Origin: Bdellovibrionales bacterium | GTDB taxonomy: Bacteria; Bdellovibrionota; Bdellovibrionia; Bdellovibrionales; UBA1609 | Length of the DNA: 64,000 nucleotides | Direction of reading: 5' to 3' | NCBI GenBank assembly: GCA_965199825.1 | Contig: OZ241329.1 | Coordinates: forward strand, 1,312,001 to 1,376,000 | In this document: piece by piece, positions 3-44,180 of the stretch | Layout: each line of letters starts with the position of its first letter | Numbering within the stretch: position 1 is the first letter of the stretch | The notes under the pieces: model-generated | The model's database searches: none | Seen by the model: only the letters and a program-made list of their open reading frames with translations | Told to the model about the DNA's origin: nothing | Program-made: the position numbers and the translations under genes

Positions 3-1508
3 ATGCACGCCGAAATTAAATGGGATCTCAATCTGATCGCATTTTCTTTTGTGATTGCTCTTGCCGCATCCTTTTGGGCGTTTTTGGTCGCGCGCGAACT
101 GACCACAATCAAAAATCCATTGCGCATTCAAATTGGTGCAAGTGTGTTGCTCGGTATTGGGATCGCCGGAATGCACTATATCGGAATGAAAGCTGCTCAT
201 TTTTATGCGGCCGAAACTTCTTCCTTTAGTGATGGCGGGTATGTGCTCGCAAATTCTCAACTCACCGTGATTGTGGTGGGTGTGACCTTTATGATTTTGA
301 CCCTTGCGCTGAGCGGCTCGACCATCGATCGCATTTTAACAAGGCGATCGATTAGCGAAAAAGTGAATTTGCAAAAAGCCAAGGAGGCCGAAATCGCCAG
401 CGAACTCAAAACCCGCTTTTTAGCCAATATGTCTCACGAGATCAGAACTCCTCTTGGAGCAATCATTGGTTTTACCCAAGTTTTAATTGATGAGCCTTTA
501 AGTGAACAACAACGACAGGCCCATCTTAAAACAGTTCTTCGCAGTGCAAGAGCTTTACTCGCATTACTTGATGATATTTTGGATCTTTCAAAAATTGAGC
601 TCAACAAACTTGAGATCGAAAATCGCGATTTTGAATTGAAAACCTTTTTGGATGAGCTGATGAGCATGTTCAAAGTCAAAACAGATGCGAAAGGTTTAAC
701 CCTTGATCTTCAAGTTGATTCGCTTTTACCAAAACGAATCTTTAGTGATTCGAATCGGCTCAGACAAATTTTGATGAATCTGATCGGCAACGCGGTGAAG
801 TTTACCGAATACGGTGGGATCAAGGTGAGAGTAAAAAGAGACGGCAGCGATTACCTTTCTTTCGAAATCGAAGATAGTGGCATCGGGCTCACCGCTGAAC
901 AGACTTCGCGTTTATTTCAACCCTTTACTCAGGCCGATAATTCGACAAGCCGAGTGCATGGGGGCACGGGGCTTGGGCTTGATATCGCAAAAAGAATGGC
1001 CGAGATGCTCGGGGGAACAGTGGTAATTTTAAAAAGCGAAAAAGGTAAAGGCACCACCTTTATTGCAACTATCCAATTGGTTAAAGCAAGAGTCGAAGAG
1101 GTGGCAAAGACATCATTAATTTCAACGTTCTCATCTGGAGAACTTAAAACTCTGAATATTCTCGTGGTTGATGACAATGAAGATAATCAGGCCTTGATCA
1201 GTCTTATCCTCAAGTCCAAAGGGGCAACCGTTGCCTTGGCGAGTGATGGAAGCCAAGGTGTAGAAAAAGCCGAGAAAACGGGCTTTGATGTGATCTTGAT
1301 GGATATCCAAATGCCAGTGATGAATGGTTACCGAGCCATCGAGCTCTTAAGAGCTAAAATGATCACCAGCCCCATTATTGCTCTTACGGCTAACGCCTAC
1401 AAAGACGAGCGGGACAGGTGCTTTAAGAGTGGCTGTGATGCTTACATCACGAAGCCAATTGATGTAGCAGAACTTGTGGCCACAATCCAACAGCTGGTCC
1501 GAGTTTAA
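3..1508 (+). CDS. MHYT-domain hybrid sensor histidine kinase/response regulator (5' end probably outside the window)
   Basis: GIAGMHYIGM (MHYT repeat), H-box [14 protein letters not shown]-box NLIGNAVKFT, G-boxes DSGIG and GGTGLGL, C-terminal receiver (VVDD, ILMDIQMP, KP). Confidence 0.93.
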   Translation: MHAEIKWDLNLIAFSFVIALAASFWAFLVARELTTIKNPLRIQIGASVLLGIGIAGMHYIGMKAAHFYAAETSSFSDGGYVLANSQLTVIVVGVTFMILTLALSGSTIDRILTRRSISEKVNLQKAKEAEIASELKTRFLANMSHEIRTPLGAIIGFTQVLIDEPLSEQQRQAHLKTVLRSARALLALLDDILDLSKIELNKLEIENRDFELKTFLDELMSMFKVKTDAKGLTLDLQVDSLLPKRIFSDSNRLRQILMNLIGNAVKFTEYGGIKVRVKRDGSDYLSFEIEDSGIGLTAEQTSRLFQPFTQADNSTSRVHGGTGLGLDIAKRMAEMLGGTVVILKSEKGKGTTFIATIQLVKARVEEVAKTSLISTFSSGELKTLNILVVDDNEDNQALISLILKSKGATVALASDGSQGVEKAEKTGFDVILMDIQMPVMNGYRAIELLRAKMITSPIIALTANAYKDERDRCFKSGCDAYITKPIDVAELVATIQQLVRV

Positions 1509-1525
1509 TACCTTCGTTCATATTT
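1488..1525 (+). repeat. Direct repeat copy 1 (last 7 codons of the kinase gene, stop included, plus spacer); copy 2 at 3421-3458
   Basis: caacagctggtccgagtttaataccttcgttcatattt vs caacagctggtccgagtttagtaccttcgttcatattt: 37/38 identical, with weaker similarity continuing to the next start codon. Confidence 0.9.
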
Positions 1526-1587
1526 ACCTTTGTACAATATAAAGCTGGGCTGTTTCGAATTTTGGGCGGCTCAGTTATAACACTCTG

Positions 1588-3417
1588 ATGGGCATTGTGT
1601 TTGTTTTGTTTAGTTTTTTGGCGCTGGCCCAGCCCGGTGATCCTTGTATTCAACATCTCACCGAGTATTTTCCACGCACGTGGCGTATTGACCAAAAAAA
1701 AATAGATCAATATTTAGATCAAAATCCTGAAGAATTAAAAACATTTTTGCAATATTCAAAGCTTGCCGAATTCATCGAGGACGCTCGTCACGAAGCATTT
1801 TTTGATTGGTTAGGAACACAATATTATTTAAGCACAGATCAAAAAAATGAAATGGATCTCGATGCCGAAATAAAAAAGTATGTGATTAAAAATAACCCAT
1901 CTTTTTCGCTAAACGAATCAGATCCAGCAAAACTAAATGAAGTGTTTGATAAGACGGTCAACACTCTTTTTAAATTTTTAGAGCAAAACGGACTTGGAAA
2001 TTTTAGGCTGATAACGAAAGGTCCTTTTTTAGAAATTTTTAAAAAGTACGATTTGGATATTTATAATTTTGTTTTAGATAAAAAAATACCTCCGTCGTCA
2101 CTTCGAACTTTTCTGACCCTGACCCAACTTTTGTATGCCGAAGATCCTGAAATTCATTCTTCAACTGAAGAGTTGGAAGGCCTCTATGAACCTTTTTTTT
2201 CACTGCTGGGTGAATCGAAATTTGAATCCAAACAGCCATTGCCAAAAATTGATTTTGGTTACAACAAAGAAACGCTAGATAAAATTTGGCTCTTTCTTAA
2301 ATCCTCGAATTACCCTCTTCCGGAATATTCAACATTACTCAAACACTCTGAGGTCGTGCAGGTACAGGCTGTGGCAAAGATCACTCACCACTCCAAGCAG
2401 AAGTTGACTGAGAATGAAGAATCGGAAGTTTTGGAGATTTACAGAAATCAGATTTTAGGGACTGAGCCTGTTATTCCTTTTAAATTTAAGAACCTCATCG
2501 CTGATCTTGAAGATGATGATATTGTGCTCAAGATCAGTGATTCAAAAAAATCAATAGCAGCTTCAAAAAATATGAGCGAAAAAATTCGCCTCGGGGCAAT
2601 TCAAGCCACCTACCTCGCCCGTGCATCTTATGGACTTATGACCGATAAAAGTATCAACTCGGAGGTGGCTCCCAATGAATCGGTCACATCTTATCGGCTT
2701 TTTTCGAATTTCGTACTTGCATCCTTTCGTGAGATTTCAATTGATCAAGGGCTTGAACCGATGATTCGCAAAGCTTTTGTAAAAGTATTCTTGGACAAAT
2801 CGATTCTCTCAAGCGCGAGTTACCGGGCGATGATGCGGACACGTCTAAAACAAGTCATCGCATTAAAAATAAACACAAGTGCTCAACATGTCCACGCTGA
2901 GAGCAAGCCAACGACACCGCAACCTCAGCCGAGGGTTGGTCCTACGCGCGAAGAGCGCATCGCAAATTATGTGAAAATCGAAAAAGAGCCTGCAGAAGAA
3001 CCGGCAGTCGAGCCACGAAACCAAACCGATGAGACTGAATCAAAATCGGATTTTCTTTCGCAGCTGTTGGATGAGCCCCAAGATTTGGCAACCGATCGCC
3101 GACGTTTATTAGAGCTCATCAAGCCCGACAAGATTATCCCGATTACGTTGAAACGGTTTGGGTTTGTCTATCAGGTTGTGTTCTCAAAACGGGCGCTTGA
3201 GGAATTGGCGTCACCACGTGCTCAATTTCCACAAGATTTTCGGCCCTGGCTCAAAGCCATGAGTATGGGTCCTGCTCGCGGTCAAGGTCAAAACGGATGG
3301 AAAAGGATCAGTGGACATGAATGGAAAATTAAAATTTTGACTTCACCCTATCGGCTCTACAGCTATCGAGACAAAAAGCGAATATGGCACTTTACTCAAT
3401 TTCAGTTGGATCACTAA
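1588..3417 (+). CDS. Secreted protein, paralogue 1, with a putative C-terminal RelE-like endoribonuclease domain (3157-3414)
   Basis: Signal peptide MGIVFVLFSFLALA|QP; Pro/Glu-rich linker; C-terminus YQVVFSKRALEEL...WKRISGHEWKIKILTSPYRL...DH resembles E. coli RelE. The CDS is secure; the domain call is from manual alignment. Confidence 0.8.
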   Translation: MGIVFVLFSFLALAQPGDPCIQHLTEYFPRTWRIDQKKIDQYLDQNPEELKTFLQYSKLAEFIEDARHEAFFDWLGTQYYLSTDQKNEMDLDAEIKKYVIKNNPSFSLNESDPAKLNEVFDKTVNTLFKFLEQNGLGNFRLITKGPFLEIFKKYDLDIYNFVLDKKIPPSSLRTFLTLTQLLYAEDPEIHSSTEELEGLYEPFFSLLGESKFESKQPLPKIDFGYNKETLDKIWLFLKSSNYPLPEYSTLLKHSEVVQVQAVAKITHHSKQKLTENEESEVLEIYRNQILGTEPVIPFKFKNLIADLEDDDIVLKISDSKKSIAASKNMSEKIRLGAIQATYLARASYGLMTDKSINSEVAPNESVTSYRLFSNFVLASFREISIDQGLEPMIRKAFVKVFLDKSILSSASYRAMMRTRLKQVIALKINTSAQHVHAESKPTTPQPQPRVGPTREERIANYVKIEKEPAEEPAVEPRNQTDETESKSDFLSQLLDEPQDLATDRRRLLELIKPDKIIPITLKRFGFVYQVVFSKRALEELASPRAQFPQDFRPWLKAMSMGPARGQGQNGWKRISGHEWKIKILTSPYRLYSYRDKKRIWHFTQFQLDH

Positions 3418-3420
3418 CTT

Positions 3421-3458
3421 CAACAGCTGGTCCGAGTTTAGTACCTTCGTTCATATTT
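3421..3458 (+). repeat. Direct repeat copy 2 (tandem-duplication junction)
   Basis: 37/38 identical to 1488-1525. Confidence 0.9.
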
Positions 3459-3512
3459 GTACAATTGAGAGCCTCAACTGTTTTGAAAACAATCCGGCTC
3501 GGTTATAGCTTC

Positions 3513-5348
3513 ATGATGAGCTTCATTTTTATTTTGTTTAGTTTCTTTGCTTTTGCCCAGCCGATCGACTCTTGTACCCAAGATCTTACCGATCATTTTC
3601 CAAGAACCTGGCGTATTGATCAAAAACAAGTCGATCTCTTTTTGGCTGAGCGTCCTGAAGAAACGAATTCATTCTTACAATATTCTCAACTGGCCCAATT
3701 TGTTGAGGACGAAAAACATGAGGCGTTTTTTGAATGGCTCGGCGTCCAACATTTTTTGAGTGCGGCTCAAACAGAAGAAATTAATCTGGATCAAAAGATC
3801 AAAACATTTCTTAGCCAAAGAAATATTCCGATCTCAGAGGATCCATCAGTTTTACGACAATCGGTCATGAATGCGGTGAATGAGGACATAGAAGGCTTTA
3901 GGCAAGTTGGCCTTGAAAATTTTAAGCACTTATTTGATGGACCGTTCGAAAGAGTCTTAAAAAATTACGATCTAGATGTTTATAATTTTGTTTTTGGTAA
4001 GCCCGTTCCCCAGTCTTCACTGCGAGCCTTTCTTACAGTTCTTAGTTTATTAAAAGCGAATGATCCCGAGATTCATGCTTCAACAGAGGATCTTGATGGC
4101 AATTATGAACTGTTCTTTTCGTTGCTCGACGAGGCTAAATTTGAAAAGCCACGGCCTTTTCCGGCCCTTGATTTTAAATATGATCAGGCAATGCTCAATA
4201 AACTGCGTCTTTTTTTAAAGACTCAGGGGTATGAGCTTCCCGAATATTCGACACTCATGAAACATTCTCGCTACGTTCAAGTGGATGCAATCACAAAAAT
4301 CACATCTCAATCTCATGAATTTTTTAATGAGAGGGAATACGATCAAATCACCGAGATTTACAAAAATATTGTTTTAAGAAATCCAACTTTTGTTCCTCAA
4401 AAGTTTAAATATCTCATCAACGAATTGATTGATGAAAAAAATCAGTTTGTTGTTAAGTATGGTCTTCCAAAAAAATCGCTCTCGAATCCAAAAAAAATTA
4501 GAGAACTGAGCGAAAATTTTCGGCTCTCTACACTTCGCTCGATCTATCTCGCTCGGCTTTTCGAAGGTTTTTTTACCGATGAAAATGGCTCCGAAATTCC
4601 CCATGATAAACTGATCACAACCGAGCGACTGTTTGGGATTCTTTTGGCATCGGCTCCTGAGGAGATTTCGGTAGATCAAGGGCTTGATCCGCTTGTTCGT
4701 AAAGCCTTTGTAAAAGTATTTTTAGAAAAGCCAATTCTTTCGAGCAATGATTACCGAACGATGCTGCGTACCCGGTTGAAACAAATCATCGCTTCAAAAT
4801 TAGCTACGGTTACAAAATCCTTTAAGCTTGATAAAGACCAGAAGGTTGCGCCATCGCAACAGAATCTGGGGCCGACCCGCGAAGAGCGCAAAGCGAACTA
4901 TGTGAAGATCGAAAAGACACCTTTGCAAATAGCAGAAGTCGCTGCAGCTCGAAAAATAGTGGAGATGGAATCAAATTCAGATTTTCTTTCTGAGCTTTTA
5001 GATCATCCTCAAGATTTGGCAACTGATCGCGAACGTTTGCTTAAAATGATTCGGCCAGGTGAGATTATCCCCATTACCCTTAAACGATTTGGGTTTGTTT
5101 ACAATGTCACATTTTCAAAGCGGGCGCTCGAAGAGTTGACCTCTCCCAGTGCACAGCTGCCACAGGATTTTAGACCTTGGCTCAAAGCGATGAGCATGGG
5201 GCCTGCGCGCGGTCGGGGTCAAAATGGCTGGAAGAGGGTCAGAGGACATGAGTGGAAAATCAAGATACTGACTTCACCATATCGTTTGCATAACTATCGT
5301 GATAACAAACGGGTCTGGCATTTTACTCAGTTTCAACTCAACCATTAA
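3513..5348 (+). CDS. Secreted protein, paralogue 2, with a putative C-terminal RelE-like domain (5088-5345)
   Basis: Start moved from 3384 to the in-frame ATG at 3513 (MMSFIFILFSFFAFA|QP) to match the paralogues; last 86 aa are 73/86 identical to paralogue 1. Confidence 0.8.
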   Translation: MMSFIFILFSFFAFAQPIDSCTQDLTDHFPRTWRIDQKQVDLFLAERPEETNSFLQYSQLAQFVEDEKHEAFFEWLGVQHFLSAAQTEEINLDQKIKTFLSQRNIPISEDPSVLRQSVMNAVNEDIEGFRQVGLENFKHLFDGPFERVLKNYDLDVYNFVFGKPVPQSSLRAFLTVLSLLKANDPEIHASTEDLDGNYELFFSLLDEAKFEKPRPFPALDFKYDQAMLNKLRLFLKTQGYELPEYSTLMKHSRYVQVDAITKITSQSHEFFNEREYDQITEIYKNIVLRNPTFVPQKFKYLINELIDEKNQFVVKYGLPKKSLSNPKKIRELSENFRLSTLRSIYLARLFEGFFTDENGSEIPHDKLITTERLFGILLASAPEEISVDQGLDPLVRKAFVKVFLEKPILSSNDYRTMLRTRLKQIIASKLATVTKSFKLDKDQKVAPSQQNLGPTREERKANYVKIEKTPLQIAEVAAARKIVEMESNSDFLSELLDHPQDLATDRERLLKMIRPGEIIPITLKRFGFVYNVTFSKRALEELTSPSAQLPQDFRPWLKAMSMGPARGRGQNGWKRVRGHEWKIKILTSPYRLHNYRDNKRVWHFTQFQLNH

Positions 5349-5353
5349 AAAAG

Positions 5354-7066
5354 ATGATCACACCAATACTCTTCTTTTTATTTAGTTTCTTTGCTTCCGC
5401 TCAACCTGTTGATTCTTGTCTTCAGAGTCTGACCGATTATTTTCCACGCACCTGGCGCATCGATCAAAAACAAGTGGAGCAATACTTAATTCGGCATCCC
5501 GATCAGGCGGCGCTGTTTCAAAAGTATTCTTGGTTTGCATCGTTTATTGAGGCTAAAGAGAATCAATCTTTATTTGATTGGCTTGGAACCCAATATTATT
5601 TAAGCGCTGCGGATCGAATTCAAACTGACAGTAAACAGACTACAGAAAAATATGTGGCGGCAGCAGCGGAGCAGTTAAAGCTCAACTCCGATGAAATCGA
5701 AAAGATGAAGTTGGTCACTCATTCGCAAATCAATTTCGATGTGGATGCAATGGAAGCCCAAGGCCTTCATGGAGTCAGATTCTTTTTTGAAGGCGCTGGA
5801 GTCGAGGTTCTCAAAGCCTATGATTTAGGACCTGAAAATTTTAAACTCCAAACCCGTGTCCCAAAATCTTCGCTGCGGGTTTACCTCACCGTGCAACAAC
5901 TTCTTTATTCGCGAGATCCTTCGGTGCACGCCGCAATGGAAAAATTGACCGAGAATTTTGATTTGTTTTTTTCGCTTCTGGGGCCAGCCGATTTTGAAGA
6001 GGCAAAGCCATTTCCTATTCTCTCAACCGATTATGATCCAAAAAAAGTAAAGCAGATCGAAGTTTTTTTGAAGTCGCGAGGATATATCTTACCGAGCTTT
6101 GTTGACTACACCATACACTCTTCGGCTGCTCGAAACTACGTGGTGAATTTGATCTTAAGATCTTTTAAGCAAAACCTGAGTCGTGAAGAGCTCGACGAGT
6201 TTTTGCTTATTTATAAGAAAAGTGTTTTGGGCGAAGCCCCACCGGTTCCGCCAAAATATCAAGAGATCAATCGGCTGTTGATTGCCGAATACACTCATGC
6301 GGGAACGTTGATCCGCCAACTGATGCCCACAGTAACAAGTCCAAAAAAAGTCAAAGAGCTCTATCAAGATTATTTGATCGATATGATCAATTTTATTCAT
6401 TCGGTACGGATCAACAGTCTTGTTAGAGTTGAAAATGCAACGGTGAGCTCATCAATTTTATTTTATCTTATCGCTCTATCGAACTTTGCCGACTTAACCC
6501 AGGATCGGGGGCTTGAGCCTTTGATTTACAAATCATTTGTGCACTTGGTTTTAAAAAAGCCTTTATTATCTGCCGATGATTATCGCGCGATGCTCAGGCG
6601 AGGCCTCAAGGAAAAAATCTCTGCGATCCTCAAACAGGATGTTGAGCCCAAAAAAGATTTATTGGTTGCGAGCGTTCAACCTCTTGAGCTCCCAAAGTTG
6701 ATGGTGAATGAAAAACGTCAAGCTCCTCCAGCAAAAAAAAATAAACCTGCCGAGACTCAAGAGATCGAAATTCCTGTGGGAATTGTTCCAGAGAAAATTG
6801 AGCCCAATATTCCCATCCAGATCGTGATCAAACCTTTTGGATTTGTGTACCGAGCCTCTTTTTCTGAAGCTGTTGTTTCTGAGCTTTCGACGCCCTGGCG
6901 TGAGGCTCTTGCACGAGGACCGGCGCGGGATCAGAGTCGAGACGGGTGGAAGCAGGTGCGGGATTACGAGTGGCAAATCACTTTGCCCAACTCGCATCAG
7001 CGCTTAGTGGGATACCGAGATCCATCAGGGCTTTGGTATTTTACCCATTTTGTTTTTGATCACTGA
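5354..7066 (+). CDS. Secreted protein, paralogue 3, with a diverged RelE-like C-terminus (6836-7063)
   Basis: Signal MITPILFFLFSFFASA|QP; shares YFPRTWRIDQK, SSLR, FFSLL, FGFVY, GPAR, GWK and the terminal DH with paralogues 1 and 2. Confidence 0.78.
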   Translation: MITPILFFLFSFFASAQPVDSCLQSLTDYFPRTWRIDQKQVEQYLIRHPDQAALFQKYSWFASFIEAKENQSLFDWLGTQYYLSAADRIQTDSKQTTEKYVAAAAEQLKLNSDEIEKMKLVTHSQINFDVDAMEAQGLHGVRFFFEGAGVEVLKAYDLGPENFKLQTRVPKSSLRVYLTVQQLLYSRDPSVHAAMEKLTENFDLFFSLLGPADFEEAKPFPILSTDYDPKKVKQIEVFLKSRGYILPSFVDYTIHSSAARNYVVNLILRSFKQNLSREELDEFLLIYKKSVLGEAPPVPPKYQEINRLLIAEYTHAGTLIRQLMPTVTSPKKVKELYQDYLIDMINFIHSVRINSLVRVENATVSSSILFYLIALSNFADLTQDRGLEPLIYKSFVHLVLKKPLLSADDYRAMLRRGLKEKISAILKQDVEPKKDLLVASVQPLELPKLMVNEKRQAPPAKKNKPAETQEIEIPVGIVPEKIEPNIPIQIVIKPFGFVYRASFSEAVVSELSTPWREALARGPARDQSRDGWKQVRDYEWQITLPNSHQRLVGYRDPSGLWYFTHFVFDH

Positions 7067-7742
7067 TTTTGTAACGCAACCACAACACACCACCTTCGAG
7101 TCGTTTCACCGAAGCCAATTTCATTTTTGTGATCGGCCTTTTGGTATAGCCCTTTTCAACATCAAACAGGGTTGGTGTTTCGGTTGAGCCATCGGCATAG
7201 GGCATAACGAGTTGGCTCAGCTCATCAATCAATTTTGATTTTAAAAAGCTTCCGTTAATGATGCCGCCGCCTTCAAGCAAAAGTCGTTTGATTCCAAAAA
7301 GCGATTTTAATTTTTTCAGTGCGACCGAAAGGTCGATCTCTTTTTTACCCGCAAAAATATAGGACACTTTTTTTTGCTGGAGATGTTCAAGATACGAGTT
7401 CGAAACATTTTCGCTCAAGATCTCGATCACGTGATCTCCTGTAATCGAATTCGAATCCCAGAGGCATTTGCCAGCTCGATCAATCACAATTGCAAAGGAC
7501 TGCGCCTGAAGATCGCCAACGAAATCTCGTTTTATAATTGTGCCCTTGGTCTTGGGCAGTTTTATTTTTGAGCTCGAAAAACCTTGCATTGATGTTCGAC
7601 CAATAATCCAGCCGTCGCCTTTTAATTTTTTATGGCAACTTTCATAAAGGCGATGAATGTTTGTATCTTTTGGCCAAAGGGTCGGCTTAATTTTTCCATC
7701 AACGGTTGTTGTCATATGACAAATAACATAAGGGCGTTTCAT
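7041..7742 (-). CDS. RibD C-terminal / dihydrofolate reductase-like protein
   Basis: MKRPYVICHMTTTVDGKI start, IIGRTS, LLLEGGGIINGSFL..LIDEL, final LWLRY. Confidence 0.9.
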   Translation of the reverse strand: MKRPYVICHMTTTVDGKIKPTLWPKDTNIHRLYESCHKKLKGDGWIIGRTSMQGFSSSKIKLPKTKGTIIKRDFVGDLQAQSFAIVIDRAGKCLWDSNSITGDHVIEILSENVSNSYLEHLQQKKVSYIFAGKKEIDLSVALKKLKSLFGIKRLLLEGGGIINGSFLKSKLIDELSQLVMPYADGSTETPTLFDVEKGYTKRPITKMKLASVKRLEGGVLWLRYKISDQKQNG

Positions 7743-9314: not shown

Positions 9315-10103
9315 TTAATTCAATCCGCAAGATTGTTGATCGTATATTGTTTTAATTTCTTTTGCCAAAAGTGCTGTGTTCCACACTGCAGCTTCGGCAA
9401 TCGTTCCTGATGTCCAATACGCATAACCAGTGTGACCACCAATTTGTAATGTGTAGGTCGAAGAACTTGTCCACGTGGTACTCGCTGTCCCGTCAGCACG
9501 TCCATTGACATAATAGGTGATCGAAGACCCATTGATTACAGCAGCAATAAAATACCATTTTGCTAATTGCAGCGTAGTTTGCCCAGACGCGCCCGAACCA
9601 AAAACAATCTGACCAGGAGGATGTCCATAAGATCCAACTACTCCAAAAATGACATTGTTTGGACCTGATCTTTGATCGATCACGTAGTTGACGAGACTGG
9701 TGTTGTAAGCCGCAAGTTTGATCCATGCACTAAAAGTTAAACCACTTCCGCCTGCAGAACTGCCAAAGTTCAAAGTGCTTGATGCGGGCACTCCAATGTA
9801 TCCTGTCGATCCATCGAACAAAGCAGCAGTCGTTCCCACTCGGCCTGGTACTCCTAATGTTGTTCCACTTTGCGGCACTCCAGTATTTGTAGCGATCGAG
9901 GAAGAGTCTGTGACACTTGTTGCTCCATAACTCTCTGCTAAGGTCCAATACCCTACGAGATGTGACCACTGCGGTGTCCAACCTGACTTTAATTTATAGC
10001 AAGCTCCGCCTGCACCAATCATTGCTGTGAGCGAACTTGTTGGTTGAGCCAGAACAGCAGAGGGCAGACATAGAATAAAAACTTGAACTAAATAATTTCT
10101 CAT
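9315..10103 (-). CDS. Secreted LamG / concanavalin A-like domain protein
   Basis: LVGYWTL, FDGSTGYI, LTFSAWIK, WYFIAAV, YYVNG, GTIAEAAVWNTAL; the ATG at 10103 overlaps the upstream TGA (ATGA) and gives a signal peptide. Confidence 0.88.
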   Translation of the reverse strand: MRNYLVQVFILCLPSAVLAQPTSSLTAMIGAGGACYKLKSGWTPQWSHLVGYWTLAESYGATSVTDSSSIATNTGVPQSGTTLGVPGRVGTTAALFDGSTGYIGVPASSTLNFGSSAGGSGLTFSAWIKLAAYNTSLVNYVIDQRSGPNNVIFGVVGSYGHPPGQIVFGSGASGQTTLQLAKWYFIAAVINGSSITYYVNGRADGTASTTWTSSSTYTLQIGGHTGYAYWTSGTIAEAAVWNTALLAKEIKTIYDQQSCGLN

Positions 10104-13100
10104 TGATACCCACTCGCCCAAGTGACATAGCAGTCATAAGTTGAACCATTATATATTGTTGTCATAGTGATCAGCGTTCCACCAGAACCAGTTGTTACAA
10201 TGGTATTGGCCGCCGACGACAAGGGTTTGTATTTGATTGATCCACAACTGGCCGCTGAGAAAACAATATTGATTGAGGCGGTGTCTTTAAAAGAGATCAA
10301 ATAATTTGCTCCATTTGCAGGAGTTCCGGTAAAGGTGAGTGCCACAGTATCATTTGCAACCGCAAAGGTCGGACTAATCGAAAATGCATTGGTTGCTGAA
10401 AAAGCTAAATTTGCTGCCCAACTTGGACTTGATCCCGTGACGCTTGGACTACTCTGAAGACTGACGATGGCTCCATTCACAGTCAGCGCAGTGGTGGGCG
10501 AAGATGTGCCGATCCCCACATTGCCGCTCACGATCATTCCATTTGTGGGTGCTGCAAGCACACCACCGTAGGTGCCGAAGGAAGCACTGCCTGCGACGTC
10601 GAGGGTTGAAGTGTTGCTGGATGTATTGACCCCGAGACGTGAGCCTGCGCTGTTAGTAATATTATAATTGAGAGTACTTCCAGAATTGCCCGAAATCCCT
10701 CCGGCATTGGAATAGAATCGAACGCCACCGCCGTAATAAATCAGACTTCCACCACTGGTGATATCTAGATTTCCATAAACAGTAAGTGTTGGGTCACTTG
10801 CCGAAGTTTCGGCCTTGGCGGTCCCACCGATCGCCATCCAGCCTTGCACATCGGCCGAGCCGGAGACATCTAAGTTGTTTTGAGGATTACTTGTACCAAT
10901 CCCCACATTGCCTGATGAATCCACGCGCATTCTCTCAGGCGCATAAGAGTTGTTTATATTTGTGGTATGAAAAGCAATGTGTCCGTCACCGGCTGCAGCG
11001 GTGAGGAGAAGTTGTGCTTGTGCCTTTGAAGCGTCTGTAACTACCCCGTCTGAGATGCGGCGATTTGAAGAGAGCCCAAAATTATCGCCGTAGGTTCCCA
11101 AATAAATTTTGTTGCTGGTGTTTGATGCAACGGCAAGATCTGTATTTGCTGATGCACCGACCTGAAGTTGGGCCCCTGGCGATGTTGTTCCAATACCCAC
11201 ATTACCACTCACAATCAAACCATTCGCAGGTGCTGCTGTTACGCCTGCATAACTTCCAACCGACATTCCACCCGTTACATCCAATGAAGATTTGGGAGCA
11301 GCAGTTGCTCCGACGTTGATGGGGCTTGAGATATAATTGTTTGCGCCTCCGTTTGCTTCACCTAAACGAAATCCATTTCCTGTCACATAGCCATGACTGT
11401 AGGCCGTGCCCATGCAGAGATCACTAATGCAAAGACCATCGGCATTGATTCCACCCACAACTGAAAGAGTATTTGTGGGCGAGGTCGTTCCTATTCCAAC
11501 TTTTCCATTTTTTAAAATTTGAAACGCGGTCGAAGGAGTCGACGCGCTTTGCCCATTCCCAATCACGAATAAGGGATCGGTGGCCACCCATGCGTTGGCG
11601 GTCTCGCCGCCGTAAGTGTTGTACGTCCCCATAACGGTTTCGTTGTATGCGGGCGCCTTAACAGCTGATCCGATGGCGACTGCGCTTTGCCCATTTGCTT
11701 GACTTGAAGAACCCAATGCAAGGCTTGCATAGCCTGAAGCATTATTCGCAGTTCCAAGTGCAACCGAATTTGATCCCGAAGTCTGACTCCCATATCCTAA
11801 TGCAATCGAAGCAAGTCCGCGCGATGTGCTCGTGTTCGATTGAACCGAACCATCGTTCATCACTGTGAAAGCCGAAGTCCCATTCGAAAGAATATTTAGA
11901 TTGGATGAGCGCACAAGGCATCCATTGTGAGGCACGGCGGATGTTCCTAATTGACCACGCGAAACTCCGGTAAATGAATTTGATGTGAGTCCCGTGTAGG
12001 AGACCGCTTCGGAGTCGAGCCATAAAATTCCAGAAGAGCCGAATCCAGTGGTTGAACTTACGGGAATGACAGTGACCGTATTATCGATCGAACCTGCAAA
12101 GGTGCCAGCAACAAGGCTTGATGCCGAATTCACTCTGAGACTTCCAGTCACCTCTAGTGTTTCATTCGGAGTGACCGTTCCAATACCGACCCGACCACCA
12201 CCCTGAATAGTCATCAACGGGGTTGCGGTGCCCGTATTTGAATAATCGTAGAATCGAAAACCACCAACCGTTCCGTATCCACGATTAGCTATGAAGTCGC
12301 TTTCACCGTCGCCACCCGAATAATTAGATCCAATCAAATTTTTCCCCTGGAATTCAAGTTTGGTGAGATCAATAGATGGAGAAAGATTTGGATCCAAATT
12401 TCCATTTGGTCCCCCTAAACTGACGACGCCAGAAATATCTAAATTATAACGGGGTGATGTGGTTCCGATTCCAACACTCCCACCGGTCGCCAAAAGATTT
12501 CCGTTGGTGATCGCAACATCACCCCCGCCAAACGCAGAGGGTCCAAAGGATTTGATTGAAACTGTATTAAACCCATTGCCTTGACTGATATTAAGAACGC
12601 CATTGCCGTAATTATTAAACGCGTTGATCACCGAGTTTGGCCCGTTCGGTACGGTCAATTGGCCAACATTTGCGGTCCCTGCCACATCGAGTTTGCCACC
12701 CATACTAGAATTGTTTGTAACCGTGAGGCCAGTGCCTGTGCCGCTGGCGGTGACTGGTCCAGAAAAAGTTTCTGTTCCTGCAATTGTCTGGTTGCCCGAA
12801 GTGTTGAGCAGTGACCCGTAGGCTCCTCCGTTTTGTGACAACATTAATTGGTTGGAGGTGGAATCGAAATACATGCGGGCTTGGGCGCTGGGTGCGACCG
12901 AAGGCGCAATCGTTCCTCGAAGCGAAATCGCACCGTTAACATCGAAAGTTGAGGCGGGTGATGTGGTGCCGATGCCGACATTTCCGCTTGAAGTAATTCT
13001 CATCGCTTCGCTTAAAGCTGTAGCATTCGGCCCAACATCAAATGCGATGATTCCATTTGTTGTATTCTCGAGACGCAAGTTTGACGAATTTGATTTTAAG

Positions 13101-15016
13101 ACAATGTCACCGTCATTGGTTGTATTTGTCCATGCACCATTGCCAACGGCCACACCGAGGACACCCTTTGAAGCCCCATTGGAATCTAAATTTATACCGA
13201 CAGAATTTGTGCCATCAACTACAAGGCCGTCGTATTGACTGGTAGAAAAAACATGTAGCCGCTTAGCCGGCGAAGTTGTTCCAATACCAACATTGCCATT
13301 AGCAAGAAGTGTCATGACTGTCGTTTCAGCGTTTGGAGGGTCGCCGATTGCGGCTTTGAGATTGATATCTAATCGAGTGTTTGGACCATACCCATTAGCA
13401 ATACTATTCGCCGCGTAGGTTCCAAGTTTAAATGCTGCGGCTTGGGAATAAGAAATGCCACCATTGGTCGGTCTTGAAATTTGAAATTCATTTTCGGTTC
13501 CTACACCAGCAGCGGCAAGAGACCCGCTAACGTCGAGCGCGGAGTTTGGTGAAGCTGTAGCAATACCAACTCTTCCACCACGAGGATTTAGGAGTAGAGG
13601 TTGGTAGCTTCCTATCTTTGATGAAGAAATATATGCGGCATCGACTGATCCATCATATCCCATATATAAACTCTGACCGCTTGTACCGGTATTGATTGCA
13701 AAACCGTGAGCGCTTACTTCATACCCACTCGAGCTTGTATCTGCAGTGACTACCAGTTTGGAAATCGGAGCGTTGTCACCAATTCCTACGTTGCCGTTTG
13801 CGGTTACTGTCATGACGTCGCCGATGCCGCTGCGTAAATTTAGAATTCTATTGGTCGCACCGATGGAAGCTACATTCACAGCTAAACCGTTCGCGTGACT
13901 ATCTGAAAATTCGTTATTCAAAATCCCCGCGGCATAGCCACCTCCAGAAGTTGCCCACGAGATTCCGTTTGAATTTTCATATGAGGTGCTCGCATCGCCA
14001 ATACCATACGGTGTATTTGCTAATTGGGTAGACGGTGCTGTCGTCCCAATCCCAACAGATCCATTTCCTAAAATTGTCATTTTCGTTGAAGGGGAGTTAC
14101 TTGTAGTCCCGCTTGAGGTTGGCGTTGCAGTTTGAAATTGGATTGTCGAACCGCCAGCACCTGTAGATACCCCAGAAGACAAATTTAAAAATCCTCCACC
14201 TTTGTCACTTGAAGATAAGGTTGCGCCACCAGCCGTAACGCTCAAATTGTTGCCCGCACTATTCGAAGTGGTCGAGCGCTCCATCGCAATATTGCGCGCG
14301 ACATTGCCACCAAAACTCAAATCAGAACTAGGATTTGTCGTGCCCACACCAATTTTGCCTGAGCCTAAACTTAAATTTCCACCTGCAAGTCCAGCAAACG
14401 AAGTCGATGTTCCGTTGATCAAAGCGAGCAATTCCGCATAAGGCGTGCTCGCAAAGATCGCATCCACTTTAGATTGGGTGGTGTCGCTGCTCGTTTGTAT
14501 AAAACCCGATGAGGCTGCACTTGAAAGTCTCTCGGCTTCAAAGGCATACGGCACAGACTCAATGACGTAAGGCGCAGAAAATGCCACCGTGTCGGGTCCA
14601 TCAACAAAGCTCACATAAATGTTGCGTGAATCGGTCGGTTGCGGAGTGTAGGCGGTAGCAGTGGGTGCTCCCACGCAATTTAAACTCGAAAGTGTTCCGG
14701 CATTTTGAAAAGCACTGGAGACCGAAAGACCAAGATCATTCGATGTTCTTACACCTGTACCGAGCGTGACCGCAAAAATGCCGTTCGAGTTTGTCATGTT
14801 AAGAGGAAAAGTTTCTTCAAACAAAACACATTCGGGCCGTGAGTTCGCAATCGCCATGCTTGTGACACGGATAGTGAGATCCACCGTTGAGGACTCAACC
14901 ACCACGCTGTCTTTTAAAAGTTGTCCTTGAAAGGTGATGCCTTGGGGGGCAGCAAAAGCACCGCGGCTGATAATAAAGAGTGCGAGCCCAATCCTGAGCC
15001 CTTGTTTTAAATTCAT
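10100..15016 (-). CDS. Fibre adhesin 1 (1638 aa), mosaic trimeric fibre-like, no S74 chaperone
   Basis: Signal peptide, shared N-domain (QGITFQGQLLKD...SVPYA), about 12-14 GxVGIGTxxP linkers, YadA-head-like repeats (SIALG/SVALG/SLALG/AVAIG near 11640-11830), distinct C-terminal domain ending YVTWASGYQ. Confidence 0.88.
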   Translation of the reverse strand: MNLKQGLRIGLALFIISRGAFAAPQGITFQGQLLKDSVVVESSTVDLTIRVTSMAIANSRPECVLFEETFPLNMTNSNGIFAVTLGTGVRTSNDLGLSVSSAFQNAGTLSSLNCVGAPTATAYTPQPTDSRNIYVSFVDGPDTVAFSAPYVIESVPYAFEAERLSSAASSGFIQTSSDTTQSKVDAIFASTPYAELLALINGTSTSFAGLAGGNLSLGSGKIGVGTTNPSSDLSFGGNVARNIAMERSTTSNSAGNNLSVTAGGATLSSSDKGGGFLNLSSGVSTGAGGSTIQFQTATPTSSGTTSNSPSTKMTILGNGSVGIGTTAPSTQLANTPYGIGDASTSYENSNGISWATSGGGYAAGILNNEFSDSHANGLAVNVASIGATNRILNLRSGIGDVMTVTANGNVGIGDNAPISKLVVTADTSSSGYEVSAHGFAINTGTSGQSLYMGYDGSVDAAYISSSKIGSYQPLLLNPRGGRVGIATASPNSALDVSGSLAAAGVGTENEFQISRPTNGGISYSQAAAFKLGTYAANSIANGYGPNTRLDINLKAAIGDPPNAETTVMTLLANGNVGIGTTSPAKRLHVFSTSQYDGLVVDGTNSVGINLDSNGASKGVLGVAVGNGAWTNTTNDGDIVLKSNSSNLRLENTTNGIIAFDVGPNATALSEAMRITSSGNVGIGTTSPASTFDVNGAISLRGTIAPSVAPSAQARMYFDSTSNQLMLSQNGGAYGSLLNTSGNQTIAGTETFSGPVTASGTGTGLTVTNNSSMGGKLDVAGTANVGQLTVPNGPNSVINAFNNYGNGVLNISQGNGFNTVSIKSFGPSAFGGGDVAITNGNLLATGGSVGIGTTSPRYNLDISGVVSLGGPNGNLDPNLSPSIDLTKLEFQGKNLIGSNYSGGDGESDFIANRGYGTVGGFRFYDYSNTGTATPLMTIQGGGRVGIGTVTPNETLEVTGSLRVNSASSLVAGTFAGSIDNTVTVIPVSSTTGFGSSGILWLDSEAVSYTGLTSNSFTGVSRGQLGTSAVPHNGCLVRSSNLNILSNGTSAFTVMNDGSVQSNTSTSRGLASIALGYGSQTSGSNSVALGTANNASGYASLALGSSSQANGQSAVAIGSAVKAPAYNETVMGTYNTYGGETANAWVATDPLFVIGNGQSASTPSTAFQILKNGKVGIGTTSPTNTLSVVGGINADGLCISDLCMGTAYSHGYVTGNGFRLGEANGGANNYISSPINVGATAAPKSSLDVTGGMSVGSYAGVTAAPANGLIVSGNVGIGTTSPGAQLQVGASANTDLAVASNTSNKIYLGTYGDNFGLSSNRRISDGVVTDASKAQAQLLLTAAAGDGHIAFHTTNINNSYAPERMRVDSSGNVGIGTSNPQNNLDVSGSADVQGWMAIGGTAKAETSASDPTLTVYGNLDITSGGSLIYYGGGVRFYSNAGGISGNSGSTLNYNITNSAGSRLGVNTSSNTSTLDVAGSASFGTYGGVLAAPTNGMIVSGNVGIGTSSPTTALTVNGAIVSLQSSPSVTGSSPSWAANLAFSATNAFSISPTFAVANDTVALTFTGTPANGANYLISFKDTASINIVFSAASCGSIKYKPLSSAANTIVTTGSGGTLITMTTIYNGSTYDCYVTWASGYQ

Positions 15017-15040
15017 AATCTCTCCATAAATTATTTTTAT

Positions 15041-18000
15041 TTAACGAGCTTGAACCAATCTTTCCAATTGCTCGATCCGAGCTTTGAGCTCGGCTGATTC
15101 TTGTTTTGATTTTTGTTCTGCTTGTTCGAGATCTACGATTCGCTGTTTTAATTGCGTATTTTGACTATAAATCGTTTTTATTGACTCAATCACAGGAGCG
15201 ATAAGGTGATCGTAGACAACCGATTTCAATCCTGACTCAGGATCGGTTTTTATCGATTGAGGATAAACCTTTTCGACATCTTGTGCGATCAATCCAATCT
15301 GCTCTTGATTTCCAAAATGCTCCTGGTCTTTCCAGTCGTAACTAACACCCTGAAGTTTTAAGATATTCTCGAGCGAATTTTGAAGTGGATCGATATTATT
15401 TTTTAGGCGCACGTCCGAGGGTGATGAACACCCAGTCGACGTGCAAACTTGAGTTCCGCCTACGCGCAAAACATTTGTTGATGCGATATTGATGTCGCCG
15501 TTGACGTCAAGTTTGTAGGCGGGTGACGTGGTTCCGATACCGACGTTTCCGCTGACGATAAGCCCATTGGCTGGCGCAGCCGTTCCTGCATATGCTCCGA
15601 TTGCGGCTTCGCCCGCAACATCAAGATGGTTCACTGGATAAATACTGATTCCGATATTATTACTTTTTAAATAACTTGTTCCGCCGTAAGTGTTTCTAAT
15701 TGTAACAGTCCCATCATATCCAAAAGCCAGTCCTGCACTCACAACTCCAGCGACATCAAGAGAATCATTAGGAGCGGTCGTCCCAATACCGACACGACCC
15801 GCCGAATAAGACAGATTCGAACCATTCTGATTCCAATAACTCGAAGTTGAAGTTCCAACAGGCACTCCATTGACGGTGAGCGATGTTGCGTTCACGGTGC
15901 CTGCGACATCAAGCTTTGTTGCCGGATTTGTTGTTCCAATTCCCACATTGCCGGTGCCATTCGGTTTGATAATAATATTGTGATTGGTTGCGCCACCGCC
16001 GCCATCGCTCGTTATAAACAAAGCTGAATTATACGTTGTGAGAGAAGCTGTATTTACACTTGAATCATAATTTGAAAACATAATTCCAGAATTCATTCTC
16101 AGGCTTCCATATTGATCAAATAGGGAGGTGCCCGCAGAACTCGTAAAGCTTGCCACATCTGTTCCGGTGGGGCTTGAGACTGAGAGTCTCGCCCCTGGAT
16201 TTGATGTGCCTATGCCGACGTTGCCGGAAAAATAAGAAGGTGCTGTCGGATCGCTCGTGTAGATAGACCACTTGTTGGTTCCTTGGACTAAACCTGTGTA
16301 CACACCATAGGCGGTTGAGATGACCGAACCTAGATTTTGGGTGACGGCAAAAGATCCACCACTGGCAGTGGTAATACCACCAGTGCCTGACGTGTAGACT
16401 CCACCGTTGATTGCAGTCGCACTCCCAATTGTGGTGTTGTAGGCATTTTGCGCTTGTGCTTCGAAGCCACGAATAATTCCACTTGGAGAATTTGCTCCAT
16501 TAAAACTGACTGTCGAATATCCTCCGCGGACAGTAGCAGTGGATGCACTGGATGGATAAAAATTCTGATTCATAATAAACGCGTTGGAGCTTCCGGATGA
16601 AAGACTGACATTACCTCCCTCAACATCCAGCAAAGCAGAAGGGGCTGTTGTGCCTATGCCGACGTTGCCGTTCGGCAGCATAGTCACGATATTTGAACCG
16701 TTGGTATTGAAATCGTATCCAGCATAGCTGGATTGAGATCCATTAAAGGTCAGTCTGCCCGTTGTTCCATTCCGGTTTAGAGAATATCCGTAGCCGGTTC
16801 CGTTATACAGACCGAGGCCAGCCCCAGCGACGATACTGCCGGTAAAACTAAAGTTTTGAAAGCCATCGGTGGAAATTGAGCTTGCTAAAGTGCCGTCTGA
16901 ACGTTGTGTCTGGATAAGCGGTGAATTTGAATCAGCTATTTTAAAGACGGAGCCCGTAACCTTAACGCTTCCAGTGACATCCAGTGCTTGAGACGGGTTC
17001 GTAATACCGATCCCAACATTCCCACCAACAATCAACGACCCACCTATACTAGAATTATTTACTACCGATAATCCAGTGCCTGTGCCACTTACTGTGACTG
17101 CGCCGGAAAAAGTTTCGGCTCCCGCTACAGTTTGACCACCTGAAGTACTAAGCAGAGAGCCGTAAGCTCCACCGTTCTGTGAAAGCATCAGTTGATTCGA
17201 TGTCGAATCAAAATACATTCTGGCCTGTGCGGTTGGCGAAAGTGCTGGCGCCGACATCGCATGCAGCGAAACCGCGCCATTAAGATCAAGAGTCGATGCG
17301 GGTGAGATTGTGCCGATGCCGACGTTGCCTCCGTTTGGATTTAATAAAATCGGGTAACTCACACCAAAATTTCCACGATCGTGCCCTTGAAACCAAATAC
17401 CATTTGGTGGCGATGCATAAGCTCCAATGTCTAATAGATTTCCATAGGCATAGCTGCCGCCGACTCGTAAAATTCCTACCGGGGCAGCTGCATTTCCATT
17501 GTAGTCGCTGGTCGTGCCAGCGATTTCAAGAGGGAGCGATGGGTGAGTTGTGCCGATTCCGACATTCCCATCATTTCCGCTACCGGTCGTCTTGCTCCCA
17601 GGTTTTAGGAGTATGTGTCCGCCATTGCCGCCACCATTACCCCCACCATTTCCTGCAGTGACAACAACACTTCCTCCGCTGCCGCTCAGTGATCCGTCTG
17701 CTGCGGTGATATTTATATTTGATGAAGCGTCTGAGGCTGAATTGCCGAAGAAGAGGGTCCCACTTCTGATGTTAACTGCGCCTCCACCATAATTTCCGCC
17801 TCCAGCAGTTATGTTTACCGCACCACCACCGCCCGATCCGTTGCCAGCAGAAAGATTAAGAACACCGCCAAGACCATTTGCTGATGAAGCACTGCTTGCC
17901 GCTCCTGCAGAGATGTTCACAGTACCAGCATTGCCATGGCCGGCTGCAGGATCTGTATTCGAACCTGCGGTGAGAGTTATATTTCCAGCAGTCGGTCCAG

Positions 18001-19372
18001 CATAAATATCGTTATTGCTCGAGCCTGCGACTAAAAAAATTGAAGCCGGGCTTGTACTTGTCGGAGCTCTCACATCTAGGATGCCTGCAGGATTTGTTGT
18101 GCCAATTCCCACATTCCCATTATACCCGATTCGCATTCTTTCTTGATTTAAACCAAAACTATTTAAGACACCACTTGTTCTAAAAACAATATTGGTATTG
18201 TCGTCATCAAAATTGGATTGTCGAAGAACTCCAATCGACGCGAATGGTGAATTAGTGCTTTGGTTTGAGCCAAAAATAATATTTCCCATCGATGATCCGT
18301 CGTCAGGATTCCCATGCGTGTCATGTAAAAAGACTTGAGGGGAAGATGCGGTAACATCCAGAATACCAGTCGGATTTGTCGTGCCCACGCCCACATTGCC
18401 ATTGCCCATTACTGTCATCTTAGTCGAAGGGGAGTGACTCGAAGTCCCCGAGCTCGCAGGCGAAGAAGTTTGAAATTGAATTGCAGAACTTCCGCCACCG
18501 GTTGCAATTCCAGATGAGAGATTGAGTGTTCCACCATTTTGATCGGTGCTTGATATGGTTGCTCCACCCGCAGACACAGTTAAATTATTTCCTTGTGAAG
18601 CGGTTGAGCGCTCCATTGCAATATTGCGCGCGACATTGCCGCCAAAACTTAAATCTGAACTTGGATTTGTCGTGCCCACACCAACGCGACCTGAAGTACC
18701 ATTCACAAAAAAGTTGCCTGAACCAATATTGAGATTGCCGCTTGCGAGGCCCATAAATGAATTTGATGTTCCATTGATCAGTGCCAGCAACTCGGTGTAA
18801 GCGCTTGAAGCCATGATGGCATCGACTTTAGATTGCGTTGTGTCGGTATTCGTTTGCAAAAAACCAGAAGAAGCCGCGCTCGAAAGTCTTTCAGCCTCAA
18901 TCGCATAAGGCACAGACTGAATCACATAAGGTTGAGCAAAGGCCACGGTGTCGGGCCCGTCGACAAAGCTCACATAAATATTTCGTGAGTCGGTGGGGAG
19001 CGGAGAATATGCGGTGGCAGTTGGTGCGCCCACACAGTTTAAGCTCGACAATGTTCCGGTGTTTGCAAAAACATTTGGGATTGAAAGTCCAAGATCATTT
19101 GCGGTTCTCGTGCCCGTACCTAAGGTGACCAAAAATATTCCGTTGGATGCGGTCATATTTAAAGAATAGCTTTCTTCAAACACCGTACATTCGGGCCTCG
19201 TGCCCGCAATCGACATGCTGGTAATTCTAAAAGTGACATCGACGTTTGAGTCTTCGACCACAACGCCGTCTTTTAGAAGTTGCCCTTGAAAAGTAATTCC
19301 TTGTGGGCCTGCTTTGGCGACTTTCCCTAAACAAAATAAGAGTAAACCAAAAATAAATTTATTTTTTAACAT
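15041..19372 (-). CDS. Fibre adhesin 2 (1443 aa) with C-terminal peptidase S74 intramolecular chaperone
   Basis: Shared N-domain, GNVGIGT linkers, SDVRLKNNI...GLIAQDVE...YDHL then a coiled coil. Confidence 0.92.
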   Translation of the reverse strand: MLKNKFIFGLLLFCLGKVAKAGPQGITFQGQLLKDGVVVEDSNVDVTFRITSMSIAGTRPECTVFEESYSLNMTASNGIFLVTLGTGTRTANDLGLSIPNVFANTGTLSSLNCVGAPTATAYSPLPTDSRNIYVSFVDGPDTVAFAQPYVIQSVPYAIEAERLSSAASSGFLQTNTDTTQSKVDAIMASSAYTELLALINGTSNSFMGLASGNLNIGSGNFFVNGTSGRVGVGTTNPSSDLSFGGNVARNIAMERSTASQGNNLTVSAGGATISSTDQNGGTLNLSSGIATGGGSSAIQFQTSSPASSGTSSHSPSTKMTVMGNGNVGVGTTNPTGILDVTASSPQVFLHDTHGNPDDGSSMGNIIFGSNQSTNSPFASIGVLRQSNFDDDNTNIVFRTSGVLNSFGLNQERMRIGYNGNVGIGTTNPAGILDVRAPTSTSPASIFLVAGSSNNDIYAGPTAGNITLTAGSNTDPAAGHGNAGTVNISAGAASSASSANGLGGVLNLSAGNGSGGGGAVNITAGGGNYGGGAVNIRSGTLFFGNSASDASSNINITAADGSLSGSGGSVVVTAGNGGGNGGGNGGHILLKPGSKTTGSGNDGNVGIGTTHPSLPLEIAGTTSDYNGNAAAPVGILRVGGSYAYGNLLDIGAYASPPNGIWFQGHDRGNFGVSYPILLNPNGGNVGIGTISPASTLDLNGAVSLHAMSAPALSPTAQARMYFDSTSNQLMLSQNGGAYGSLLSTSGGQTVAGAETFSGAVTVSGTGTGLSVVNNSSIGGSLIVGGNVGIGITNPSQALDVTGSVKVTGSVFKIADSNSPLIQTQRSDGTLASSISTDGFQNFSFTGSIVAGAGLGLYNGTGYGYSLNRNGTTGRLTFNGSQSSYAGYDFNTNGSNIVTMLPNGNVGIGTTAPSALLDVEGGNVSLSSGSSNAFIMNQNFYPSSASTATVRGGYSTVSFNGANSPSGIIRGFEAQAQNAYNTTIGSATAINGGVYTSGTGGITTASGGSFAVTQNLGSVISTAYGVYTGLVQGTNKWSIYTSDPTAPSYFSGNVGIGTSNPGARLSVSSPTGTDVASFTSSAGTSLFDQYGSLRMNSGIMFSNYDSSVNTASLTTYNSALFITSDGGGGATNHNIIIKPNGTGNVGIGTTNPATKLDVAGTVNATSLTVNGVPVGTSTSSYWNQNGSNLSYSAGRVGIGTTAPNDSLDVAGVVSAGLAFGYDGTVTIRNTYGGTSYLKSNNIGISIYPVNHLDVAGEAAIGAYAGTAAPANGLIVSGNVGIGTTSPAYKLDVNGDINIASTNVLRVGGTQVCTSTGCSSPSDVRLKNNIDPLQNSLENILKLQGVSYDWKDQEHFGNQEQIGLIAQDVEKVYPQSIKTDPESGLKSVVYDHLIAPVIESIKTIYSQNTQLKQRIVDLEQAEQKSKQESAELKARIEQLERLVQAR

Positions 19373-19381
19373 CTGTCATCC

Positions 19382-23152: not shown

Positions 23153-23173
23153 GAAACTTCCTTTAATAAAACT

Positions 23174-27133: not shown

Positions 27134-27162
27134 TTGGGTCCCTTTTCAATAGATAGCAATCT

Positions 27163-43452: not shown

Positions 43453-43517
43453 TTAGGAGCCGAGCGTGAATGCTAATTTTTCAAACGGACCCGCAATCAA
43501 GATTTTGCCTATTGATC
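43453..43517 (-). pseudogene. Diverged duplicate of the 3' end of the marR-family gene
   Basis: Encodes KILIAGPFEKLAFTLGS* vs KIMIASAFEKLASSLPS* of MarR; shares the exact 14-mer gctaatttttcaaa and the same stop position. Confidence 0.75.
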
Positions 43518-43527
43518 TGGGTACTTC

Positions 43528-44003: not shown

Positions 44004-44180
44004 AAAATAAAAGCCCAGATTTATATTCTCACTCACTCACTCAATCAATAACAGGAAGCCCCAATACCAAAACGAACGGAGCTAAAAAATGCTCACCTCT
44101 AGCGCAGCTCAACCACCCGAACGGTCAAAGCTCGAGCGCAAAATTCACCGATCGCAATTGAGCTTGCTCAAACGCCAACT

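Follow-up and report, generated by a model that had tools for sequence, protein, structure and literature searches.

RelE-like proteins with predicted signal peptides and a Cys-x-x-x-Leu tag in Bdellovibrionota: candidate exported effectors of predatory bacteria

Organisation of the locus

In a 64,000-nucleotide window (the whole stretch of DNA that was analysed) on contig OZ241329.1 of a Bdellovibrionales bacterium, three genes lie in tandem on the + strand, each encoding a protein with a predicted signal peptide and a C-terminal domain that resembles the mRNA interferase RelE. An earlier note, made from the sequence alone, had delimited these three open reading frames (ORFs), separated by 95 and 5 nucleotides (nt), and had read their products as secreted effectors directed against the ribosomes of another cell; the frames and the two gaps are as it described (Table 1), and a further gap of 79 nt lies between the preceding kinase gene and the first paralogue. 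Positions are those in the window unless prefixed by G000, the source genome (C1, its contig), or by L001, the stretch that holds a fourth paralogue. The latter lies outside the window, 89 kb further on (G000:C1:1408082-1409908; 608 aa, 38% identical), and no fifth paralogue was found with a hidden Markov model (HMM) of 49 rows among the 2,564 ORFs of G000, which were called by a custom script.

The longest frame of paralogue 2 opens at 3384, and its start was placed at 3513/3516 on account of the signal peptide and of the duplication of the DNA upstream. Positions 1488-3404 match 3421-5335 at 65.6% (blastn) and, in the alignment, the copy begins within the final codons of the kinase gene upstream; on this sequence evidence, paralogue 2 is the product of a tandem duplication that included upstream DNA. 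Comparison of paralogues 1 and 2 gives a non-synonymous divergence (dN) of 0.12 for the domain, against 0.39 for the body. Of the codon changes that low-depth contigs of a related strain show in the two domains, 10 are synonymous and 2 non-synonymous, in a count covering 35 of 74 differences.

We also noticed a TATAAT-like hexamer 6-8 nt before the ATG of paralogues 1, 2 and 4, with no Shine-Dalgarno sequence (1576-1590, 3504-3518; L001:7069-7085), which suggests leaderless transcripts with their own promoters; the hexamer is not enriched across the whole class of Cys-tagged proteins described below. A hybrid histidine kinase gene, one of 16 recognised by motif among the G000 ORFs, stands directly upstream at both G000 loci (3-1508; L001:3816-6881) and is absent from the four homologue loci looked at, where the upstream neighbours are unrelated larger genes.

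Table 1. Features of the tandem locus, with positions in the window.
Feature	Position	Strand	Description
Paralogue 1	1588-3417	+	609 aa, composed of signal peptide and Cys tag, then a body of unknown fold, a linker and the RelE-like domain at the C-terminus
Paralogue 2	3513-5348	+	611 aa; 56% identity to paralogue 1; Cys tag 3573-3587; RelE-like domain 5097-5345 (84% identity)
Paralogue 3	5354-7066	+	570 aa; Cys tag 5417-5431; RelE-like domain 6845-7063
Predicted Sec signal peptide, paralogue 1	1588-1629	+	14 aa, ALA|QP, short, without basic n-region; from sequence and hydropathy
Cys20-x-x-x-Leu24 tag, paralogue 1	1645-1659	+	Sole Cys in the protein
Conserved beta-strand extension before the RelE core, paralogue 1 (residues ~505-526)	3100-3165	+	Strand in model; Tyr 517 in 41/49
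RelE-like domain, paralogue 1	3166-3414	+	Model, alignment and profile evidence
Catalytic-position codons, paralogue 1	K582 3331-3333; R589 3352-3354; H609 3412-3414	+	RelE K54; RelE R61; extrapolates to RelE R81
Intergenic DNA copied from 1488-1587	3421-3512	+	Carries the upstream kinase's last codons and a TATA-like hexamer 6 nt before ATG
Upstream neighbour, hybrid sensor histidine kinase	3-1508	+	Not an antitoxin
Downstream convergent neighbour, RibD C-terminal/reductase-like protein	7041-7742	-	Match below curated cut-off; not an immunity gene

The C-terminal domain and its family

The C-terminal ~85 residues are RelE-like, as indicated by a structure model and, independently, by sequence comparison. 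The model is of low confidence (pLDDT 60) and presents strands and helices in RelE order (a beta-alpha-alpha-beta meander, the BECR/RelE fold); the top 22 matches in the fold search made with it were all RelE/ParE-type toxins, the outcome that the earlier note had anticipated. Its by-eye match to E. coli RelE is borne out with the real sequence of this toxin, which gives an hhalign score of 25.6 (maximum of 15.9 in 100 shuffles) and 14.5 bits with the 49-row HMM, a value reached by none of 944 scored shuffles. The likeness claimed for other toxins of the RelE family fared less well, as YoeB and YafQ gave no significant sequence alignment, and the domain, correctly placed at the C-terminus, had been cut too short: its conserved part begins ~20 residues earlier, with an aromatic residue at position 517, Tyr in most members. 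Pfam had no match for six queries (E 10) and gave only two unrelated weak matches for 13 domains (E 1), and NCBIfam had none for 10 family members.

In the RelE alignment, K580, K582 and R589, which form the K-x-K-x6-R motif correctly read in paralogues 1 and 2, correspond to K52, K54 and R61, and H609 corresponds to R81 when the alignment is extended two residues past its end. RelE R81, YoeB H83 and YafQ H87 occupy one general-acid position, and the general base of RelE is K52 or K54 (PMC5027501). Within the 49-member family, R589 and G570 are invariant (49/49 each), followed by G561 (48/49) and K582 (47/49). The supposed conserved catalytic Lys at the K52 position does not hold, this residue being Glu in 39/49 and Lys in only 5/49 members, among them paralogues 1, 2 and 4. 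His is, as observed before, the last residue of all three tandem paralogues; in the family it occupies the 609 column in 21/49 and lies within one residue of it in 31/49, the general-acid position being here extrapolated. Neither can the three copies be taken as equally competent: paralogue 3 has Gln/Thr at 580/582, lacking both lysines, and a 10-residue deletion in its domain, with Arg and His kept, and is probably weaker or altered in function, judging from these residues.

[quoted passage not shown] The fold could have been kept for another job, either poisoning gyrase in the manner of ParE or binding RNA or ribosomes without catalysis, which we consider very unlikely: the catalytic residues of RelE are missing from ParE toxins, whose N-terminal helices are extended (PMC7180214), whereas here the K582 and R589 positions are the most conserved polar residues of the domain.

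Of the 13 hits that a profile search returned among 1.84 billion representatives, two are proteins of this genome, nine are proteins of 503-587 aa that carry the domain C-terminally, and the other two, repeat proteins, were dropped. An 18-row profile found matches in 10 of 400 further genomes from the phylum and in 21 of 300 from the order, together 28 different genomes; the 49-member set comprises the four proteins of G000, the nine metagenome proteins from the representative search and 36 proteins from the 28 other Bdellovibrionota genomes. All 49 are long fusions, of 240-740 aa, with the domain at the C-terminus (median domain identity 21.5%), and no stand-alone relative of 48-203 aa was found among 263 candidates in a word-limited search. 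Because the bodies, of 60-533 residues, split into 24 BLAST clusters, it is the toxin domain, rather than the body, that stays constant; the shared body described earlier holds within one subfamily and not across the family. The body was found in G000 only with the RelE-like domain, the family having been gathered via this domain, and the proteins of the window form a supported clade with P0004-P0008. In a branch of mostly short bodies (L175, L176, L179, L180, L181, L184 and L185), the domain ends in a conserved Cys and has another Cys in the last sheet strand, a possible disulfide.

Predicted export signals, absence of an adjacent antitoxin and the Cys tag

The A-x-A|QP signals reported for the three proteins are present as ALA|QP, AFA|QP and ASA|QP, predicted by eye and from hydropathy. 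The combination of a signal-type N-terminal hydrophobic segment, called by a heuristic, with a C-terminal toxin domain is family-wide, and 48/49 members have no transmembrane window downstream of the signal. No basic n-region is present in the signals of paralogues 1-3, which would fit proteins that are not exported, with the N-terminus as an anchor and the RelE domain active in the producing cell, in dormancy or anti-phage suicide, restrained by the body or by the extra beta-strand. The conserved strand ahead of the core, the kinase gene upstream at both G000 loci and the existence of fused, regulated RelE domains, such as that of the CARF-RelE CRISPR effector Cami1 (PMC11229360), also speak for such a self-acting protein. 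Cami1, however, is cytoplasmic and activated by cyclic oligoadenylate (PMC11229360), whereas the proteins described here have a signal peptide, and no CARF sensor domain was matched by Pfam or PADLOC in the members scanned. Moreover, a membrane anchor would require longer hydrophobic stretches than these, which terminate in A-x-A sites, Lys/Arg n-regions occur in many homologues, PADLOC gave no match for 18 members, and no defence genes were seen in the homologue neighbourhoods viewed; action within the producer seems to us highly improbable.

Concerning the RelE-like proteins, the absence of an adjacent antitoxin is confirmed, considering the three short gaps and the identity of the neighbours, a hybrid kinase and a convergent RibD-like gene. 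No downstream partner recurs in the family: an ATG-started ORF of 45-140 aa is present in only 6/39 loci, none alike. The Pfam families PF02604 and PF05016 had no match in G000, with control matches in 7/14 genomes each. An inhibitor may be encoded at a distance and be unrecognised. A type II toxin-antitoxin module was ruled out, as there is no adjacent antitoxin and the protein is not a stand-alone toxin of ~90 aa; unlike in type II toxins, the domain here ends a long signal-peptide protein with no Pfam match. Elsewhere in the genome, a Cys-tagged exported protein (L046, G000:C1:1520386-1521339) has a weak Phd/YefM antitoxin-like match (E 0.0023, below cut-off), and was not recovered by the genome-wide PF02604 search.

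Each of the paralogues has one Cys only, 5-6 residues past the predicted cleavage site, within a C-x-x-x-L motif. A Cys with a hydrophobic residue at +3/+4 occurs within residues 13-80 of 46/47 intact N-termini (43/47 with a strict +4 rule; P0008 and L179, incomplete, were left out), compared with 1/47 within residues 113-180. A lipoprotein (signal peptidase II) reading was discarded, the Cys lying behind polar residues past the A-x-A site and not in a lipobox. One homologue, L182 (G534:C81), has the Cys motif but no in-frame signal peptide, with stops just upstream; its start is possibly broken or mis-assembled.

The motif extends beyond the RelE-like family. Neither this tag nor the phylum-wide spread of the family figures in the earlier note. 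By home-made rules, false positives included, it is present in the first 22 mature residues of 108 of the 883 signal-like proteins of G000, with ~29 expected, and ~65-70 other predicted exported proteins of this genome carry the tag. Among 66 hand-picked tagged proteins, 14 reach the Pfam cut-off: eleven with domains that we take to be of cytoplasm type (DnaJ, PrkA, SpoVR/DUF444, two OmpR-type DNA-binding domains, peptide deformylase, two GNAT, GTPase, MaoC and AIM24), and three others (EEP nuclease/phosphatase, Omp85 and M14 peptidase). Signal-less copies of PrkA, DUF444 and deformylase exist separately in G000. Of 42 untagged signal-like proteins, from the loci examined, 14 also reach the cut-off, nine being envelope/extracellular and five others (three apparent false signal calls and two sensor kinases); the difference in domain types between tagged and untagged proteins has a Fisher p of 0.054 unfiltered and of 0.0003 without those five. 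These data are suggestive of a tag that marks exported proteins with cytoplasm-type domains, and we infer that it may act in sorting or delivery.

Several tagged signal-peptide proteins are worth describing individually. A PrkA-type AAA+ protein of 800 aa is encoded, together with a SpoVR-DUF444 fusion of 1030 aa, at G000:C1:1097685-1108547 (L040, L041), the signal-less PrkA and DUF444 genes being at G000:C1 800899-804079; a B. bacteriovorus PrkA row is listed in the empty-bdelloplast proteome supplement (PMC11003981). Two tandem proteins with OmpR-type DNA-binding domains (L042, G000:C1:1217176-1218801) are candidate exported transcription effectors, a peptide deformylase-like protein (L043, G000:C1:1380343-1381242) exists besides the housekeeping copy, and a further protein of 192 aa, with no Pfam match, is encoded in the window at 55042-55620.

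The composition of this class bears on another explanation, namely that the RelE-like proteins are digestive RNases, released into the bdelloplast or onto lysed prey for RNA recycling, with no dedicated delivery and perhaps no dependence on ribosomes. The bdelloplast receives signal-peptide nucleases from B. bacteriovorus (PMC7925074), the RelE-fold proteins MqsR, BrnT and HP0894 were suggested to be ribosome-independent (PMC7180214), and Glu 580 and His 609, present in many members, would recall T1-like chemistry. Nevertheless, a variable body of 60-530 residues is superfluous for a small RNase, the nearest relatives by sequence belong to the ribosome-dependent RelE branch, and the tagged class includes DNA-binding, chaperone and GTPase domains, which are sensible only in a living cytoplasm; a digestive role thus appears unlikely to us.

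Proposed role in predation

Among the 80 loci kept, the closest RecA is that of an uncultured Pseudobdellovibrionaceae metagenome-assembled genome (77%; the next at 69-74%). This family, within Bdellovibrionales, includes Bdellovibrio, and from taxonomy we infer a predatory host. G000 contains a type II secretion cluster (gspC-N), in which GspC, D, E, F, G and N score above the NCBIfam cut-offs, together with many long fibre proteins and, judging from motifs, pilus ATPases. Six tandem fibre-like genes (756-1638 aa), with a common N-terminus and GIGT repeats, one of them with an S74 chaperone domain, occupy 10100-29433 (- strand) of the window, and a similar array is found at G000:C1:201074-240927. 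An ORF at 43466-44161 has a short tandem peptide repeat near its N-terminus and may reflect a DNA repeat read as a spurious frame.

We hypothesize that the proteins are exported translation-blocking effectors aimed at the prey cytoplasm, a reading towards which we lean, if only slightly. It draws on the RelE-type fold, the conserved Lys and Arg (and His), the family-wide signal, the absence of an adjacent antitoxin and the predatory host; the lack of conservation at the K52 position, the unequal copies and the precedent discussed below weigh against the form in which the earlier note had put it. The protein would be synthesised with a Sec signal and exported across the inner membrane, which would spare the producer. 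An antitoxin would be unneeded, because the toxic domain corresponds to the last 85 of ~600 residues and would exit before folding, into a periplasm without ribosomes. After cleavage, the mature protein would start with a short Cys-x-x-x-Leu helix, a putative sorting/delivery tag; it could cross the outer membrane via the encoded type II secretion system and, guided by the tag, enter the prey cytoplasm, where the RelE-like domain, by analogy with the biochemistry of the RelE family, would enter the ribosomal A site and cut mRNA with Lys582, Arg589 and His609, halting translation.

The target could instead be eukaryotic (a host or an organelle) or another, rival predator. RelE is able to cut mRNA on eukaryotic ribosomes, polyA RNA-Seq runs under the species label of the best sequence holder hint at a eukaryote-associated sample, and the family of the host includes genomes of 1.2-1.8 Mb. 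The listed carriers, on the other hand, have genomes of 2.1-4.3 Mb, and the tagged OmpR-type DNA-binding domains, PrkA/SpoVR/DUF444 and peptide deformylase suit bacterial targets; as for rivals, attack on kin normally requires immunity genes, and none recur. We regard targets other than bacterial prey as distinctly unlikely.

Exported RelE-like effectors are not entirely without parallel, contrary to what the earlier note had supposed. RelE-fold tips were already predicted in exported polymorphic toxins (Tox-RelE), which have RHS/HINT bodies, are accompanied by the immunity gene Imm54 and are listed as exported by the type II secretion system, classical RelE being seen in a single instance (PMC3482391). 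In both, a longer protein with predicted export has a RelE-fold domain as its C-terminus, and type II secretion, the route listed there, is a possible one here, but in the family described here Pfam and NCBIfam gave no match to RHS/FHA repeats or to a HINT peptidase among the scanned members, there is no immunity gene, the toxin is constant and the bodies variable, and there is a Cys tag and a predator host. Bdellovibrio is unmentioned in the text covered of that work, whose full lists may bear on novelty (PMC3482391). With the secreted nucleases and 'kiss of death' secretome of B. bacteriovorus the family would share its nature of predator's signal-peptide enzymes released into prey; the named members of that secretome are DNases, proteases, lipases and wall enzymes, with no RelE-type protein named in the passages and supplement rows covered (PMC7925074; PMC11003981). 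B. bacteriovorus has Sec, Tat and type I and II systems, its secretion being mostly unexplored (PMC12622784), and predator Lipocone effectors were proposed for Bdellovibrionota (PMC12419801). In open-access listings and abstract starts, no description of the RelE-like family or of the Cys tag was found, nor anything pairing Bdellovibrio with CxxxL in the open-access literature. What appears to be new here is a putatively exported RelE-like family without a recurring immunity gene in predators, together with the Cys tag, exported RelE-fold toxins having been predicted earlier (PMC3482391).

More tentatively, and with less confidence than in the effector reading itself, we propose that Bdellovibrionota own an undescribed route into the prey cytoplasm, marked by a Sec signal and a Cys-x-x-x-Leu helix and used in each genome by dozens of effectors (RelE-like mRNases, DNA-binding domains, acetyltransferases and copies of chaperones and ATPases), with the RelE family stopping prey translation at contact.

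The tandem genes are a real feature, their domain has the right fold, and their products are probable exported effectors. Prey killing requires secreted agents only, its mechanism is not known, and no prey-cytoplasm killer is named in the parts covered of that work (PMC11003981); the RelE-like family offers a small, directly testable candidate killer with a predicted mechanism. The Cys tag provides a handle for listing candidate cytoplasm-acting effectors phylum-wide and for probing a delivery pathway. If the proposal is true, a toxin of toxin-antitoxin systems would have been recast as an offensive weapon, with export in place of the antidote.

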